Shown: one piece after another, positions 337-7,622 of the stretch
Position numbering within the stretch: position 1 is the stretch's first letter
How the letters are laid out: every line of letters starts with the position of its first letter
Origin: Naegleria gruberi
Lineage: Eukaryota
Strand: one strand, 5' to 3'
NCBI GenBank assembly: GCA_000004985.1
Contig: GG739124.1
DNA: 7,622 bases
Position numbers and translations under genes: made by a program
The notes under the pieces: generated by a model
The model's input: the letters and a program-made list of their open reading frames with translations, nothing else
Database searches by the model: none
Told to the model about the DNA's origin: nothing

Positions 337-465
337 ATGACTAAATCAGCAAATAAATTAATAGATTTCGTTACTTATACCAATGATTGCTTTACGTCAA
401 AAAGCAAGCCAAAGGTAGAGAAGATCTTTGACTCAATCGAGAAGAAGGTTGCCAAGAAAAGAAAG
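337..465 (+). CDS. Exon 1 of a hypothetical protein with a Lys-rich, nuclear-localisation-signal-like N-terminus (MTKSANKLIDFVTYTNDCFTSKSKPKVEKIFDSIEKKVAKKRK). It ends at a phase-0 GTAAGT donor.
   Basis: ATG at 337 lies in an A-rich context (ttaaatATGa). There are 43 codons open to 465, immediately followed by GTAAGT at 466. The frame is the same as the long open frame of exon 2. Codon usage is nematode-like. Confidence 0.6.
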
Positions 466-531
466 GTAAGTTTTTTATTTATTATTATTATATATGTATT
501 ATAATTGAATTGAATTAAATAATACAATTAG
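466..531 (+). other. Intron 1 of the same gene. It is 66 nt, in phase 0, very AT-rich, and runs GTAAGT…aattAG.
   Basis: Starts with the consensus donor gtaagt and ends with AG at 530-531. It contains in-frame stops (for example gta tta TAA), so it cannot be read through. Its length is a multiple of 3, yet the downstream frame is only open if it is removed or skipped. The acceptor (caattag) is not the nematode TTTCAG consensus. Confidence 0.55.
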
Positions 532-1081
532 AGCACTACCACCAAGAAAACAAGCAAGAACACACTCATCAACATTCCAAAGAAAGCAACCAAGCCTACA
601 CCTTGTCAATTTGGTGGTGTTGATTGGAGATCTGTTATTGCCACTTATGATCAAGATATATTGGAACTCTACTATCAAAACAGAAGACTAAAAGAATTTA
701 CAATGGAGGCTGCAAACATTTTGCACACAAGATTGCAACCAAATTTCAGCAAGTTCGGAACGTGGAATTTTCTAGGATCTTGTACAAAGGAATTATTGAA
801 CAAACTGTTCTCTCATCAAGATTGTTTGACTTGGGACGCTCCTTTTACATCAAAAGAAAACGGACAAGTTATCAAGAAGACTCAAACCTTCTTCTATTTT
901 TGTGGATCTATGCCAGATTTATTAACAGGAGAGTTTGAATGGGAATTTAAGCAACATCCAATTACGGAAGATTTCAATTTTAAACAGATCGAATCTTTTT
1001 ATAATGAGCTAGTAATTATCATCAAACCAGATAATCGAGTCTTCTGTCATTACTCTCAAGTAACACAAAGCTTTTGTCCAA
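532..1081 (+). CDS. Exon 2 of the same hypothetical protein, truncated by the gap. Reads STTTKKTSKNTLINIPKKATKPTPCQFGGVDWRSVIATYDQDILELYYQNRRLKEF…KPDNRVFCHYSQVTQSFCP. No domain recognised.
   Basis: Open frame of 183 codons from 532 to the gap edge, in the same frame as ORF-track ORF 661... Strongly nematode-like codon preference (aag, aga, gga, cca, caa, ttc, atc). The opposite strand is interrupted by stops outside the gap. Confidence 0.72.
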
Positions 1082-4000
1082 NNNNNNNNNNNNNNNNNNN
1101 NNNNNNNNNNNNNNNNNNNNNNNNNNNNNNNNNNNNNNNNNNNNNNNNNNNNNNNNNNNNNNNNNNNNNNNNNNNNNNNNNNNNNNNNNNNNNNNNNNNN
1201 NNNNNNNNNNNNNNNNNNNNNNNNNNNNNNNNNNNNNNNNNNNNNNNNNNNNNNNNNNNNNNNNNNNNNNNNNNNNNNNNNNNNNNNNNNNNNNNNNNNN
1301 NNNNNNNNNNNNNNNNNNNNNNNNNNNNNNNNNNNNNNNNNNNNNNNNNNNNNNNNNNNNNNNNNNNNNNNNNNNNNNNNNNNNNNNNNNNNNNNNNNNN
1401 NNNNNNNNNNNNNNNNNNNNNNNNNNNNNNNNNNNNNNNNNNNNNNNNNNNNNNNNNNNNNNNNNNNNNNNNNNNNNNNNNNNNNNNNNNNNNNNNNNNN
1501 NNNNNNNNNNNNNNNNNNNNNNNNNNNNNNNNNNNNNNNNNNNNNNNNNNNNNNNNNNNNNNNNNNNNNNNNNNNNNNNNNNNNNNNNNNNNNNNNNNNN
1601 NNNNNNNNNNNNNNNNNNNNNNNNNNNNNNNNNNNNNNNNNNNNNNNNNNNNNNNNNNNNNNNNNNNNNNNNNNNNNNNNNNNNNNNNNNNNNNNNNNNN
1701 NNNNNNNNNNNNNNNNNNNNNNNNNNNNNNNNNNNNNNNNNNNNNNNNNNNNNNNNNNNNNNNNNNNNNNNNNNNNNNNNNNNNNNNNNNNNNNNNNNNN
1801 NNNNNNNNNNNNNNNNNNNNNNNNNNNNNNNNNNNNNNNNNNNNNNNNNNNNNNNNNNNNNNNNNNNNNNNNNNNNNNNNNNNNNNNNNNNNNNNNNNNN
1901 NNNNNNNNNNNNNNNNNNNNNNNNNNNNNNNNNNNNNNNNNNNNNNNNNNNNNNNNNNNNNNNNNNNNNNNNNNNNNNNNNNNNNNNNNNNNNNNNNNNN
2001 NNNNNNNNNNNNNNNNNNNNNNNNNNNNNNNNNNNNNNNNNNNNNNNNNNNNNNNNNNNNNNNNNNNNNNNNNNNNNNNNNNNNNNNNNNNNNNNNNNNN
2101 NNNNNNNNNNNNNNNNNNNNNNNNNNNNNNNNNNNNNNNNNNNNNNNNNNNNNNNNNNNNNNNNNNNNNNNNNNNNNNNNNNNNNNNNNNNNNNNNNNNN
2201 NNNNNNNNNNNNNNNNNNNNNNNNNNNNNNNNNNNNNNNNNNNNNNNNNNNNNNNNNNNNNNNNNNNNNNNNNNNNNNNNNNNNNNNNNNNNNNNNNNNN
2301 NNNNNNNNNNNNNNNNNNNNNNNNNNNNNNNNNNNNNNNNNNNNNNNNNNNNNNNNNNNNNNNNNNNNNNNNNNNNNNNNNNNNNNNNNNNNNNNNNNNN
2401 NNNNNNNNNNNNNNNNNNNNNNNNNNNNNNNNNNNNNNNNNNNNNNNNNNNNNNNNNNNNNNNNNNNNNNNNNNNNNNNNNNNNNNNNNNNNNNNNNNNN
2501 NNNNNNNNNNNNNNNNNNNNNNNNNNNNNNNNNNNNNNNNNNNNNNNNNNNNNNNNNNNNNNNNNNNNNNNNNNNNNNNNNNNNNNNNNNNNNNNNNNNN
2601 NNNNNNNNNNNNNNNNNNNNNNNNNNNNNNNNNNNNNNNNNNNNNNNNNNNNNNNNNNNNNNNNNNNNNNNNNNNNNNNNNNNNNNNNNNNNNNNNNNNN
2701 NNNNNNNNNNNNNNNNNNNNNNNNNNNNNNNNNNNNNNNNNNNNNNNNNNNNNNNNNNNNNNNNNNNNNNNNNNNNNNNNNNNNNNNNNNNNNNNNNNNN
2801 NNNNNNNNNNNNNNNNNNNNNNNNNNNNNNNNNNNNNNNNNNNNNNNNNNNNNNNNNNNNNNNNNNNNNNNNNNNNNNNNNNNNNNNNNNNNNNNNNNNN
2901 NNNNNNNNNNNNNNNNNNNNNNNNNNNNNNNNNNNNNNNNNNNNNNNNNNNNNNNNNNNNNNNNNNNNNNNNNNNNNNNNNNNNNNNNNNNNNNNNNNNN
3001 NNNNNNNNNNNNNNNNNNNNNNNNNNNNNNNNNNNNNNNNNNNNNNNNNNNNNNNNNNNNNNNNNNNNNNNNNNNNNNNNNNNNNNNNNNNNNNNNNNNN
3101 NNNNNNNNNNNNNNNNNNNNNNNNNNNNNNNNNNNNNNNNNNNNNNNNNNNNNNNNNNNNNNNNNNNNNNNNNNNNNNNNNNNNNNNNNNNNNNNNNNNN
3201 NNNNNNNNNNNNNNNNNNNNNNNNNNNNNNNNNNNNNNNNNNNNNNNNNNNNNNNNNNNNNNNNNNNNNNNNNNNNNNNNNNNNNNNNNNNNNNNNNNNN
3301 NNNNNNNNNNNNNNNNNNNNNNNNNNNNNNNNNNNNNNNNNNNNNNNNNNNNNNNNNNNNNNNNNNNNNNNNNNNNNNNNNNNNNNNNNNNNNNNNNNNN
3401 NNNNNNNNNNNNNNNNNNNNNNNNNNNNNNNNNNNNNNNNNNNNNNNNNNNNNNNNNNNNNNNNNNNNNNNNNNNNNNNNNNNNNNNNNNNNNNNNNNNN
3501 NNNNNNNNNNNNNNNNNNNNNNNNNNNNNNNNNNNNNNNNNNNNNNNNNNNNNNNNNNNNNNNNNNNNNNNNNNNNNNNNNNNNNNNNNNNNNNNNNNNN
3601 NNNNNNNNNNNNNNNNNNNNNNNNNNNNNNNNNNNNNNNNNNNNNNNNNNNNNNNNNNNNNNNNNNNNNNNNNNNNNNNNNNNNNNNNNNNNNNNNNNNN
3701 NNNNNNNNNNNNNNNNNNNNNNNNNNNNNNNNNNNNNNNNNNNNNNNNNNNNNNNNNNNNNNNNNNNNNNNNNNNNNNNNNNNNNNNNNNNNNNNNNNNN
3801 NNNNNNNNNNNNNNNNNNNNNNNNNNNNNNNNNNNNNNNNNNNNNNNNNNNNNNNNNNNNNNNNNNNNNNNNNNNNNNNNNNNNNNNNNNNNNNNNNNNN
3901 NNNNNNNNNNNNNNNNNNNNNNNNNNNNNNNNNNNNNNNNNNNNNNNNNNNNNNNNNNNNNNNNNNNNNNNNNNNNNNNNNNNNNNNNNNNNNNNNNNNN

Positions 4001-6335
4001 NNNNNNNNNNNNNNNNNNNNNNNNNNNNNNNNNNNNNNNNNNNNNNNNNNNNNNNNNNNNNNNNNNNNNNNNNNNNNNNNNNNNNNNNNNNNNNNNNNNN
4101 NNNNNNNNNNNNNNNNNNNNNNNNNNNNNNNNNNNNNNNNNNNNNNNNNNNNNNNNNNNNNNNNNNNNNNNNNNNNNNNNNNNNNNNNNNNNNNNNNNNN
4201 NNNNNNNNNNNNNNNNNNNNNNNNNNNNNNNNNNNNNNNNNNNNNNNNNNNNNNNNNNNNNNNNNNNNNNNNNNNNNNNNNNNNNNNNNNNNNNNNNNNN
4301 NNNNNNNNNNNNNNNNNNNNNNNNNNNNNNNNNNNNNNNNNNNNNNNNNNNNNNNNNNNNNNNNNNNNNNNNNNNNNNNNNNNNNNNNNNNNNNNNNNNN
4401 NNNNNNNNNNNNNNNNNNNNNNNNNNNNNNNNNNNNNNNNNNNNNNNNNNNNNNNNNNNNNNNNNNNNNNNNNNNNNNNNNNNNNNNNNNNNNNNNNNNN
4501 NNNNNNNNNNNNNNNNNNNNNNNNNNNNNNNNNNNNNNNNNNNNNNNNNNNNNNNNNNNNNNNNNNNNNNNNNNNNNNNNNNNNNNNNNNNNNNNNNNNN
4601 NNNNNNNNNNNNNNNNNNNNNNNNNNNNNNNNNNNNNNNNNNNNNNNNNNNNNNNNNNNNNNNNNNNNNNNNNNNNNNNNNNNNNNNNNNNNNNNNNNNN
4701 NNNNNNNNNNNNNNNNNNNNNNNNNNNNNNNNNNNNNNNNNNNNNNNNNNNNNNNNNNNNNNNNNNNNNNNNNNNNNNNNNNNNNNNNNNNNNNNNNNNN
4801 NNNNNNNNNNNNNNNNNNNNNNNNNNNNNNNNNNNNNNNNNNNNNNNNNNNNNNNNNNNNNNNNNNNNNNNNNNNNNNNNNNNNNNNNNNNNNNNNNNNN
4901 NNNNNNNNNNNNNNNNNNNNNNNNNNNNNNNNNNNNNNNNNNNNNNNNNNNNNNNNNNNNNNNNNNNNNNNNNNNNNNNNNNNNNNNNNNNNNNNNNNNN
5001 NNNNNNNNNNNNNNNNNNNNNNNNNNNNNNNNNNNNNNNNNNNNNNNNNNNNNNNNNNNNNNNNNNNNNNNNNNNNNNNNNNNNNNNNNNNNNNNNNNNN
5101 NNNNNNNNNNNNNNNNNNNNNNNNNNNNNNNNNNNNNNNNNNNNNNNNNNNNNNNNNNNNNNNNNNNNNNNNNNNNNNNNNNNNNNNNNNNNNNNNNNNN
5201 NNNNNNNNNNNNNNNNNNNNNNNNNNNNNNNNNNNNNNNNNNNNNNNNNNNNNNNNNNNNNNNNNNNNNNNNNNNNNNNNNNNNNNNNNNNNNNNNNNNN
5301 NNNNNNNNNNNNNNNNNNNNNNNNNNNNNNNNNNNNNNNNNNNNNNNNNNNNNNNNNNNNNNNNNNNNNNNNNNNNNNNNNNNNNNNNNNNNNNNNNNNN
5401 NNNNNNNNNNNNNNNNNNNNNNNNNNNNNNNNNNNNNNNNNNNNNNNNNNNNNNNNNNNNNNNNNNNNNNNNNNNNNNNNNNNNNNNNNNNNNNNNNNNN
5501 NNNNNNNNNNNNNNNNNNNNNNNNNNNNNNNNNNNNNNNNNNNNNNNNNNNNNNNNNNNNNNNNNNNNNNNNNNNNNNNNNNNNNNNNNNNNNNNNNNNN
5601 NNNNNNNNNNNNNNNNNNNNNNNNNNNNNNNNNNNNNNNNNNNNNNNNNNNNNNNNNNNNNNNNNNNNNNNNNNNNNNNNNNNNNNNNNNNNNNNNNNNN
5701 NNNNNNNNNNNNNNNNNNNNNNNNNNNNNNNNNNNNNNNNNNNNNNNNNNNNNNNNNNNNNNNNNNNNNNNNNNNNNNNNNNNNNNNNNNNNNNNNNNNN
5801 NNNNNNNNNNNNNNNNNNNNNNNNNNNNNNNNNNNNNNNNNNNNNNNNNNNNNNNNNNNNNNNNNNNNNNNNNNNNNNNNNNNNNNNNNNNNNNNNNNNN
5901 NNNNNNNNNNNNNNNNNNNNNNNNNNNNNNNNNNNNNNNNNNNNNNNNNNNNNNNNNNNNNNNNNNNNNNNNNNNNNNNNNNNNNNNNNNNNNNNNNNNN
6001 NNNNNNNNNNNNNNNNNNNNNNNNNNNNNNNNNNNNNNNNNNNNNNNNNNNNNNNNNNNNNNNNNNNNNNNNNNNNNNNNNNNNNNNNNNNNNNNNNNNN
6101 NNNNNNNNNNNNNNNNNNNNNNNNNNNNNNNNNNNNNNNNNNNNNNNNNNNNNNNNNNNNNNNNNNNNNNNNNNNNNNNNNNNNNNNNNNNNNNNNNNNN
6201 NNNNNNNNNNNNNNNNNNNNNNNNNNNNNNNNNNNNNNNNNNNNNNNNNNNNNNNNNNNNNNNNNNNNNNNNNNNNNNNNNNNNNNNNNNNNNNNNNNNN
6301 NNNNNNNNNNNNNNNNNNNNNNNNNNNNNNNNNNN
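1082..6335. other. Assembly or scaffold gap of 5,254 N. Sequence content, and even the true size, are unknown.
   Basis: Uninterrupted n characters from 1082 to 6335. Base 1081 is a and base 6336 is g. Seen directly. Confidence 0.99.
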
Positions 6336-6337
6336 GT

Positions 6338-6782
6338 AATTCAACAAGATCCCTTCCAAACAATCATGGAAGAGATGCTGTTCCAAGAAAATCTATGGGA
6401 GGAGAAGCCAAGTCAAATCCAAAACTCAACACTGCTACATTCAATCGTGCTTTAGATCGTTTCTTGGAATCAAAGGAAGGTACCGCACTCAAATCTATCC
6501 AATTGACAAATTGACAAAATTCGGTAGAGCTAGTGGCTTAGATAAATACAAGATTGACAGAAACTTGTTAACTACAAGCTAAAAGGTCACGTTTCCAATG
6601 CAGGACATTCAGGTGTTACAGTTGTTGCTGGTTTCGATATAGCTCAACAAACTAATGGATTAGCCTCCCTCGGTTTGCCAAAGAAGTTGGTCTATAAATT
6701 TCCATACACAGGAAAGGAATTGAAGCATTTGCTTGAAAAAGAATCCATTAGAAATTACCAAGGAAGAAGCAAGAGACATTGA
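6338..6782 (+). pseudogene. Coding-like region whose open frame hops from frame 2 to frame 1 to frame 0. It is a candidate frameshifted pseudogene, or a gene corrupted by gap-edge indels. Product not recognised.
   Basis: Frame 2 runs 6338..6514 (NSTRSLPNNHGRDAVPRKSMGGEAKSNPKLNTATFNRALDRFLESKEGTALKSIQLTN*). Frame 1 continues …LTKFGRASGLDKYKIDRNLLTTS* to about 6582. Frame 0 runs about 6558..6782 (QKLVNYKLKGHVSNAGHSGVTVVAGFDIAQQTNGLASLGLPKKLVYKFPYTGKELKHLLEKESIRNYQGRSKRH*). All three use preferred nematode codons. The minus strand is full of stops here. An 8-bp tandem duplication lies exactly at the first frame switch. Confidence 0.3.
6503..6518 (+). repeat. Perfect 8-bp tandem duplication, ttgacaaa ttgacaaa.
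   Basis: Sequence aaTTGACAAATTGACAAAat at 6501..6520. Deleting one copy fuses the frame-2 and frame-1 ORFs into one continuous reading frame. Confidence 0.85.
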
Positions 6783-6851
6783 CACTGCTGTCCTGTACAG
6801 TCTGCCAATAGACCTTAAAATGAGCGCGAAAATTCATCGTAATCAAAAAAA

Positions 6852-7622
6852 ATGGCAAAACCTCTAGTCAACCATTCACTGAGTGTTTTTCTCCATTCCT
6901 CATCACATTCGATTAATTCGATGAATTGGAAGTGTAGGCGGAATAATTTTAATTTATTATTATTAATTATAATATTCATGATGGAAATAATATATTGTGG
7001 AGTGGTAGAATCATCATCTTCCGAAATGTTGGGACAATGGAAATGTAAATCATCGAGTGCTTCCTTGATTGCAAAGTTAGGATCAAAATATGAAATATTT
7101 AAAAATCCAAAGATGCCATCTGTAGAATGTGAAAGGGTCATTCTGCCCGATAACACAGTTCCTCTTCCTGTGGAAGAGTTTTGGCATGTGGAGGATTATC
7201 CAACCATTGCCTTCCCTGAAATTAGTGATTTGAGTTTATTGGATGTTTGTCAATCGTTTAAAATTGTGGAAGAGAGAAATAATTTGACATGCATTGATTT
7301 GTGTGAAAATTATGCATATAATCGAAGTGAGATATTTGATTTTATTAATTATTGTAAATATTGTAGTAATGCAAAAGGATACAAATCATTTAATGAGAGA
7401 ATTGAAAATAATAATTGTAAAAATTCAAATGCTACAATACGATCCATGTTGGAGGATTTTCCGAGAGATGCTAGATTTTGTGGACATAGTAACTTTGGAG
7501 TGCCATTCATTTCACCATATCTAGATTATTCATACTTGTGCTATTGTGTGAATTCTAACATGTTTGGTATGGGGTGTAAAAAGAGAGCTCTTACCGAATT
7601 TATTATAGATTTCACTGCATAC
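6852..7622 (+). CDS. Hypothetical cysteine-rich protein, 3'-partial, that continues beyond the window. It has an N-terminal hydrophobic signal-anchor-like segment, about 12 Cys and NxS/T sequons, so it is a putative type-II membrane or secreted glycoprotein.
   Basis: ATG at 6852 in an aaaaaaaATGg context, just after an in-frame TAA at 6840. At least 257 codons are stop-free to the window end, which is highly improbable by chance in AT-rich DNA. The minus strand at 7520..7622 has stops in all frames. A hydrophobic stretch FNLLLLIIIFMMEIIYCGVV is encoded by about 6948..7007. Cys-containing motifs include TCIDLCENY, YCKYCSN, FCGH and LCYCVN. Sequons NNLT, NRS and NAT are present. This ORF is absent from the ORF track only because it has no stop inside the window. 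Confidence 0.55.
   Translation, partial: MAKPLVNHSLSVFLHSSSHSINSMNWKCRRNNFNLLLLIIIFMMEIIYCGVVESSSSEMLGQWKCKSSSASLIAKLGSKYEIFKNPKMPSVECERVILPDNTVPLPVEEFWHVEDYPTIAFPEISDLSLLDVCQSFKIVEERNNLTCIDLCENYAYNRSEIFDFINYCKYCSNAKGYKSFNERIENNNCKNSNATIRSMLEDFPRDARFCGHSNFGVPFISPYLDYSYLCYCVNSNMFGMGCKKRALTEFIIDFTAY

Follow-up and report, generated by a model that had tools for sequence, protein, structure and literature searches.

The 7622-nt stretch of Naegleria gruberi contig GG739124.1 analyzed here (the window) contains 2368 real bases, the rest being N. Its right-hand end is occupied by an open reading frame (ORF) of 257 codons, which runs off the window without meeting a stop codon (Table 1). This ORF probably encodes the N-terminal part of an orphan receptor restricted to Naegleria, which would combine a signal sequence and a Cys-rich ectodomain with a helical bundle located beyond the window and folded like G-protein-coupled receptors (GPCRs).

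The frame is genuinely protein-coding. Counted from the nearest upstream stop, it stays open for 260 codons, and the remaining five frames of the same stretch contain 6 to 34 stops. At the local base composition, 260 stop-free codons would arise with a probability of ~9e-10. The longest open frame in 5000 first-order Markov simulations of the 1287-nt real segment had 220 codons, so that 257 was never attained, which rules out a chance ORF. The original prediction, made from the letters of the window and a program-made ORF list, had described a frame of at least 257 codons as the longest convincing one in the real sequence and had ascribed its absence from the list to the missing in-window stop. 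Translation and ORF statistics confirm both the frame and its rank (the runner-up, in the left segment, has 183 codons), and the lack of a stop proved to be the only cause of the omission. The label "unannotated" holds for the present fragment, but not overall: the same gene, or an allele of it, is annotated as NAEGRDRAFT_63548.

Relatives of the ORF product were collected by an exhaustive phmmer (HMMER) search of 1.84e9 protein cluster representatives at E ≤ 1e-3. A homology search had been proposed in the original prediction; this one returned 23 relatives. The best match, designated P0001 (E 2.9e-169; 99% identity over ORF residues 1 to 257), is the 453-residue "predicted protein NAEGRDRAFT_63548" of N. 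gruberi (XP_002681181.1, EFC48437.1, D2V400_NAEGR), so that the gene is already catalogued, albeit without a function. The next matches, P0002 and P0003, have E values of 2.2e-30 and 9.8e-29, respectively. The ORF and residues 1 to 256 of P0001 share the first Met and are identical at 254 of 257 positions; the three differences (H8P, one Leu fewer in the hydrophobic region of the signal segment, and A73G) all fall within the first 73 residues and suggest that NAEGRDRAFT_63548 is represented here by an allelic or haplotype copy.

All relatives with a named source come from N. gruberi, N. fowleri, or N. lovaniensis, with at least seven, four, and four loci, respectively; those without a source name derive from environmental or read-set assemblies of ENA, JGI, or Logan. 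The identity of P0001, together with the Naegleria-only origin of the named relatives, identifies the source as a heterolobosean amoeba and not a nematode, and the proposed membership in a nematode-specific Cys-rich family fails, as no nematode protein was found among the 23 matches. Paralogues such as N. fowleri FDP41_006849 share with NAEGRDRAFT_63548 a scaffold of 12 cysteines, a (W/F)INYCxYC motif, and a multi-pass C-terminal domain. Two genes of the family, encoding P0007 and P0011, lie head to tail within 6.5 kb of an environmental contig (L002, positions 3232-6536; ENA ERZ27315067 k141_310275), and N. fowleri FDP41_003040 and FDP41_003042 carry near-consecutive locus tags on one contig. 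The family thus seems to have grown by tandem duplication.

The inability of the original prediction to place the protein in a named family is borne out. Searches of Pfam, NCBIfam, and PDB sequences with the ORF, with sets of ten and six relatives, and with a family profile produced only noise (DUF7896, E 0.2; RPAP2, E 0.016; GPR156, E 1.3). Literature searches by locus tags, accessions, and terms for Naegleria Cys-rich proteins or orphan GPCRs turned up no account of a NAEGRDRAFT_63548-like family. NAEGRDRAFT_63548 and its uncharacterized paralogues have neither a described function nor a Pfam family, and in the window the gene is truncated where the sequence stops. When metagenomes were scanned with P0001, no relative came up. 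A word-indexed protein search with the 257-residue ORF found nothing, despite the existence of a 99%-identical protein, and a family profile search through the word index recovered 3 members; for eukaryotic queries of this kind, a "no hit" from an indexed search is no evidence of absence.

Table 1. Features of the 7622-nt window (residue numbers refer to the 257-codon ORF)
Feature	Position (nt)	Strand	Comment
ORF, 257 codons, no stop, runs off window end	6852-7622	+	5' part of first coding exon; allele or copy of NAEGRDRAFT_63548
Polar N-terminal extension, residues 1-32, with KCRR	6852-6947	+	Long n-region, or 5' leader if the start is Met24 (6921-6923)
Hydrophobic segment FNLLLLIIIFMMEIIYCGVV, residues 33-52	6948-7007	+	Signal-peptide h-region; uncleaved signal anchor less likely
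ESSSS linker, residues 53-57	7008-7022	+	Possible cleavage by signal peptidase at VES|S or SSS|S
Cys-rich extracellular (luminal) domain, residues 58-244	7023-7583	+	12 conserved Cys, three sequons
Signature motif F-I-N-Y-C-K-Y-C, residues 164-171	7341-7364	+	Family consensus D-W-I-N-Y-C-Q-Y-C
Start of first transmembrane helix, residues 245-257, RALTEFIIDFTAY	7584-7622	+	Helix 245-256 in the ORF model; window ends here
Pesticin/phage-lysozyme-like coding remnant	6338-6867	+	PF16754 match, E 5.7e-10
Antisense ORF, 113 codons, GTG start	6815-7156	-	Overlaps 5' end of the 257-codon ORF
Start of second gene	337-1081	+	Exon 1, 337-465; intron, 466-531; exon 2 from 532 into the N gap
N gap	1082-6335		Single run of 5254 N, 69% of window

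The N-terminal elements listed in the original prediction, namely, a polar stretch of 32 residues with KCRR, a hydrophobic segment, and ESSSS, are all present. The hydrophobic segment (Kyte-Doolittle value, 2.45) is the only one exceeding 1.5 in the 257 residues; in the family alignment it coincides with the hydrophobic N-terminal stretches of the paralogues, and it is modeled as a helix (residues 29 to 50). The predicted local distance difference test (pLDDT) score of the AlphaFold model is below 50 over the polar extension and again over residues 49 to 59, the latter being consistent with a flexible linker. A scan by the -3/-1 rule places candidate cleavage sites after residues 54, 56, and 57. 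The initiation context of Met1 (A at -3, G at +4) is better than that of Met24 (T at -3), whereas a start at Met24 (nt 6921) would yield a textbook n-h-c arrangement. The N. fowleri relative P0024 carries a similar extension of ~30 residues (S-x-S-x-F ... K-F-K-C) ahead of its hydrophobic region. In most paralogues, the hydrophobic segment begins 3 to 10 residues from the Met and has the appearance of a cleavable signal peptide (e.g., MGHALVLWMMVIQLSIFVCVESS in P0007). Because most paralogues start with such a short signal peptide, one is also likelier here, perhaps from Met24, than a type II anchor; by eye and by simple rules, cleavage is favored. Residues 33 to 52 are an element for targeting to the endoplasmic reticulum (ER), and the Cys-rich domain would be extracytoplasmic with or without cleavage.

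The ectodomain, of ~190 residues, contains cysteines at positions 65, 93, 133, 147, 151, 168, 171, 189, 210, 230, 232, and 242, of the 14 in the whole ORF. In an alignment of 25 sequences, this set of 12 is conserved, with ten cysteines that never vary and two (C151 and C189) retained in ~80%. The alignment shows no such conservation of the two remaining cysteines, located in the signal segment or ahead of it. The domain is most likely stabilized by up to six disulfides. The signature motif includes four invariant residues (N166, C168, Y170, and C171), and I165 and Y167 are conserved in 92% and 88% of the sequences, respectively; further invariant positions are P204, C210-G211, G216, P218, and C230-x-C232. 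All markers of the family (the 12-Cys scaffold, (W/F)INYCxYC, FP, CG, GxP, and CYC) occur in the window ORF. Three sequons, NLT144, NRS157, and NAT193, fall in the ectodomain, each being common to 6 to 10 relatives, and the ORF also contains NHS7. The AlphaFold model of the 257-residue ORF, a mixed alpha/beta domain, has an overall pLDDT of 74.3, with values of 85 to 96 over approximately residues 130 to 240. The ~12 cysteines, the quoted cysteine motifs, and the several sequons of the original prediction are all there, and a disulfide-rich extracellular or luminal domain, extracytoplasmic and probably glycosylated, is supported.

Within the window, the ORF has one hydrophobic segment and, after it, a Cys-rich domain with sequons, the pattern from which a single-pass type II or secreted Cys-rich glycoprotein, possibly of a nematode-specific family, had been proposed. 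This proposal is refuted for the reference allele and very improbable for the window, as five more membrane segments follow in the 99%-identical P0001, spliced relatives total seven, and the window breaks off where the first transmembrane helix (TM1) begins, in addition to the Naegleria origin of all named relatives. P0001 continues with TGIISFSALSLFILFSSLIPKL, and hydropathy places a membrane segment at its residues 257 to 275; in the model of P0024, the equivalent of the ORF helix is TM1, at residues 277 to 315. Beyond the window, P0001 has 196 more residues and five more membrane helices by Kyte-Doolittle analysis, corresponding to TM1 to TM5, as well as LKKISDVS, its version of the family motif KKxSDIN. 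The combination of immediate downstream stops with a lack of homologues, named in the original prediction as refuting the ORF, does not apply to the reference protein, which reads on, and homologues were found. By the same hydropathy count, the spliced relatives P0024 and P0023 consist of a signal segment and seven helices. P0031, P0037, and P0038 show TM6, TM7, and an EFD-like tail region by sequence reading, and most relatives with TM6 and TM7 have a conserved tail, (I/M)EFDxxEF..FY.C. Loops and tail contain 12 Lys and Arg residues inside versus 2 outside, which fits an N-out, C-in topology. The first reading of this stretch was thus right about the reality of the ORF but wrong about the organism and the topology, and the gene had already been catalogued.

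The absence of TM6 and TM7 from P0001 is best considered together with an intron that follows helix 5 in three relatives. In L001, an N. fowleri-like contig, the exon stops with ...ACTTCG|GTAAGT and coding resumes after ...CTCAG|TTTGGA, continuing into TM6 and TM7. Each of the tandem genes of contig L002 is likewise interrupted there by a short intron, with TM6, TM7, and (M/V)EFDKEEF encoded after it. Unspliced or ORF-style gene calls read into this intron and end with "VS..." (compare P0003 with P0024), because GTAAGT translates as Val-Ser. P0001, P0036, P0014, P0003, P0007, and P0011 all end a few residues past "...SD(I/V)N..T(S/K)", with either "VS(F)..." or "VC(F)..."; in particular, P0001 ends with "...STK|VSFHFLHFYDFYCMLN", and the N. 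gruberi models P0036 ("KTK|VSFNT") and P0014 ("NSP|VSFHL") end in a like manner. Judged from these sequences, such endings are intron read-through, and the N. gruberi RefSeq/JGI models NAEGRDRAFT_63548, 73520, and 71816 have probably been cut short before TM6 and TM7. The left-hand gene of the window offers a parallel, as its splice donor (GTAAGTTTT, at 466), if read through, yields "VSF".

The annotated 453-residue product might instead be correct, in which case it would be a five-helix truncated paralogue or a decaying copy with its C terminus outside the cell; the database model does end after helix 5. We consider this quite unlikely, because the last 16 residues of P0001 begin with "VSF", which is what the Naegleria 5' splice site GTAAGTTT of the window yields when translated, and start exactly at the intron position of the three relatives. 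Moreover, P0036 and P0014 end like P0001, whereas spliced N. gruberi paralogues reach TM6 and TM7. A VSF ending at a conserved intron position suggests truncation of the P0001 model and, for the actual product, a total of seven helices. The practical consequence is that several database models of the family, including the one matching the window, appear to be cut at an unspliced intron.

For the full-length relative P0024, AlphaFold2 was run on an alignment of 20 sequences. The resulting model has a mean pLDDT of 74.8, with block means of ~70 to 95 over the membrane region, and contains seven long helices followed by a helix-8-like segment. When it was compared with the PDB by Foldseek, all top matches were GPCRs (E 4e-4; target-normalized TM-score, 0.55 to 0.60). 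They belong to classes A and C and include GPR6 (8tyw), S1P1 (7vie), CB2 (6pt0), GABA-B2 (9jr0), and GPR156 (8yjp), whose folds are superposable on the model at a sequence identity of only 7 to 13%. As modeled, the full-length relatives are GPCR-like at the level of the fold and members of no recognized GPCR class. The family has conserved motifs of its own, which differ from those of the GPCR classes: IPKL after TM1, W..W.R.V...T after TM3, KKxSDIN after TM5, and the EFDxxEF tail.

Several observations weigh against the assignment of the ORF to a GPCR-fold receptor. The Pfam domains 7tm_1, 7tm_2, 7tm_3, Frizzled, and Dicty_CAR gave no match in six full-length members (threshold, E ≤ 10) or in ten members (E ≤ 0.1), and profile matches in the PDB were nonsignificant, the best being those to GPR156 (E 1.3) and heliorhodopsin (E 0.6). 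The DRY, NPxxY, and CWxP motifs are absent from the conserved TM positions of the family. The evidence for the fold consists of predicted models, derived from 20 to 25 sequences, and of a paralogue that is ~30 to 39% identical to the ORF product; TM6 and TM7 of the gene itself are deduced from paralogues and from the read-through signature. Finally, a seven-transmembrane (7TM) fold of the GPCR type, as predicted by the models, would be no proof of G-protein coupling.

The main rival explanation retains the same architecture but gives it a non-GPCR role, such as adhesion to or recognition of prey or substrate, that of a cargo or trafficking receptor, or that of a transporter-like seven-helix protein. 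It would account for the lack of any class-defining GPCR motif or Pfam match, and many proteins with a 7TM fold are known to function without G-protein coupling. Further, much of the regulation of G proteins in Naegleria has been attributed to proteins that combine 7TM and regulator of G-protein signaling (RGS) domains (PMC9283941). Such a role appears unlikely, though less so than any other alternative considered here.

Two known systems offer parallels for the orphan receptor proposed here. In the Frizzled/Smoothened proteins (class F), as in the Naegleria family, a signal peptide is followed by a disulfide-rich ectodomain of ~120 to 200 residues and a 7TM bundle. However, their N-terminal domain is a helical 10-Cys Cys-rich domain (PF01392), which was tested for and is absent in the Naegleria family. 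The fungal Pth11-like receptors combine an 8-Cys CFEM domain with a 7TM region, are lineage restricted and expanded, and are thought to sense the environment. They resemble the Naegleria family in being lineage-restricted, expanded 7TM proteins with an N-terminal Cys-rich ectodomain. No Pfam match to CFEM (PF05730) or Pth11 was found in the Naegleria family, from which the Pth11-like receptors differ in Cys count, motif, and taxon.

Under the receptor assignment, the window would encode the ER signal sequence, the disulfide domain of ~190 residues, and the first turns of TM1. The GPCR-fold bundle would follow beyond the window, with TM1 to TM5 contained in the 453-residue model and TM6, TM7, and the EFDxxEF tail most likely in a second exon. 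ER targeting and disulfide formation would place the ectodomain on the outer face of the membrane, directly above the helical bundle. There it may bind an extracellular ligand, with the differences between paralogues providing specificity. The paralogues retain the Cys scaffold, diverge elsewhere, and have been amplified, partly in tandem, which is the pattern expected of ligand-recognition modules. Ligand binding would then be relayed through the 7TM bundle to cytoplasmic partners, most likely heterotrimeric G proteins, with the conserved loops (W..W.R.V...T after TM3 and KK-I/V-S-D-I/V-N after TM5) and the tail serving as putative relay sites.

With this arrangement, G-protein coupling would be a plausible function of the family. 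The G-protein toolkit of Naegleria is large. N. fowleri has several G-alpha subunits, some of which need an exchange factor, along with one recognizable candidate for a GPCR similar to the cyclic AMP receptors (cAR-like) and 28 7TM-RGS proteins; its other orphan 7TM proteins are mentioned only as "data not shown" (PMC9283941). A bolder, tentative possibility, which we would not yet call likely, is that the family represents an undescribed, Heterolobosea-restricted class of true GPCRs with a new six-disulfide ligand-binding fold, acting as the "missing" exchange factors of the conventional G-alpha subunits of Naegleria, the pathogen N. fowleri included, which exchange slowly. Should these proteins be true GPCRs, they would be candidate chemosensory receptors and drug targets. 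A multigene family confined to one genus, with a GPCR-shaped membrane domain and an outer domain matching no known fold, would supply concrete candidates for the sensing of prey, hosts, or surroundings by Naegleria and, in the brain-eating species, surface proteins without a human counterpart.

The real parts of the window have a G+C content of ~33% and are eukaryotic in style. Upstream of the ORF lies a coding remnant related to the Pesticin/phage-lysozyme-like domain. Its PF16754 match is partial (profile positions 29 to 101 of 156), with the C-terminal third of the domain missing, and is split over three frames, with shifts near 6480-6530, at ~6585, and at ~6745, the last one in a run of A. 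The final frame of the remnant stops at 6865-6867, 16 nt inside the 257-codon ORF. Introns were considered as a cause of the frame shifts and rejected: one 50-nt GT..AG candidate would bring the frame back but is weak in its splice signals, and no GT..AG occurs in the A-run near 6745. The stitched translation of the remnant had no match in the word-indexed protein search. The remnant is either a pseudogene (of an amoeba lysozyme-type gene with bacterial toxin or phage ancestry) or the result of homopolymer errors in a poor mini-scaffold.

The overlap of the last lysozyme-like frame with the ATG at 6852, together with the frame shifts at nearby A-runs, would also be compatible with a single gene, in which the 257-codon frame continues the lysozyme-like one through a frameshift or an error in the A8 run at 6845-6852 and the hydrophobic segment is internal. 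Such a fusion is hardly credible: the reference protein P0001 starts at the same Met, members of the family have no lysozyme-like N terminus and mostly open with a signal peptide, and a Pesticin match that is both partial and frame-broken is typical of a pseudogene. The antisense ORF that overlaps the start of the coding frame is most likely an artifact of the sense frame, given the conserved coding on the sense strand.

The gene at the left-hand end of the window has a 66-nt intron (GTAAGTTTT...TTAG) of the GTAAGT...AG type, and its product (~226 residues) has no Pfam match. No tRNA or Rfam elements were found in the window. We infer that the 7.6-kb window is a gap-ridden mini-scaffold representing an alternative haplotype, which would explain why the gene of the 257-codon ORF is cut off and unannotated here. 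In the N. gruberi assembly, small scaffolds duplicate genes of large ones; for example, products of a 7683-nt contig and of a 290,827-nt contig fall into the same 90%-identity protein cluster.
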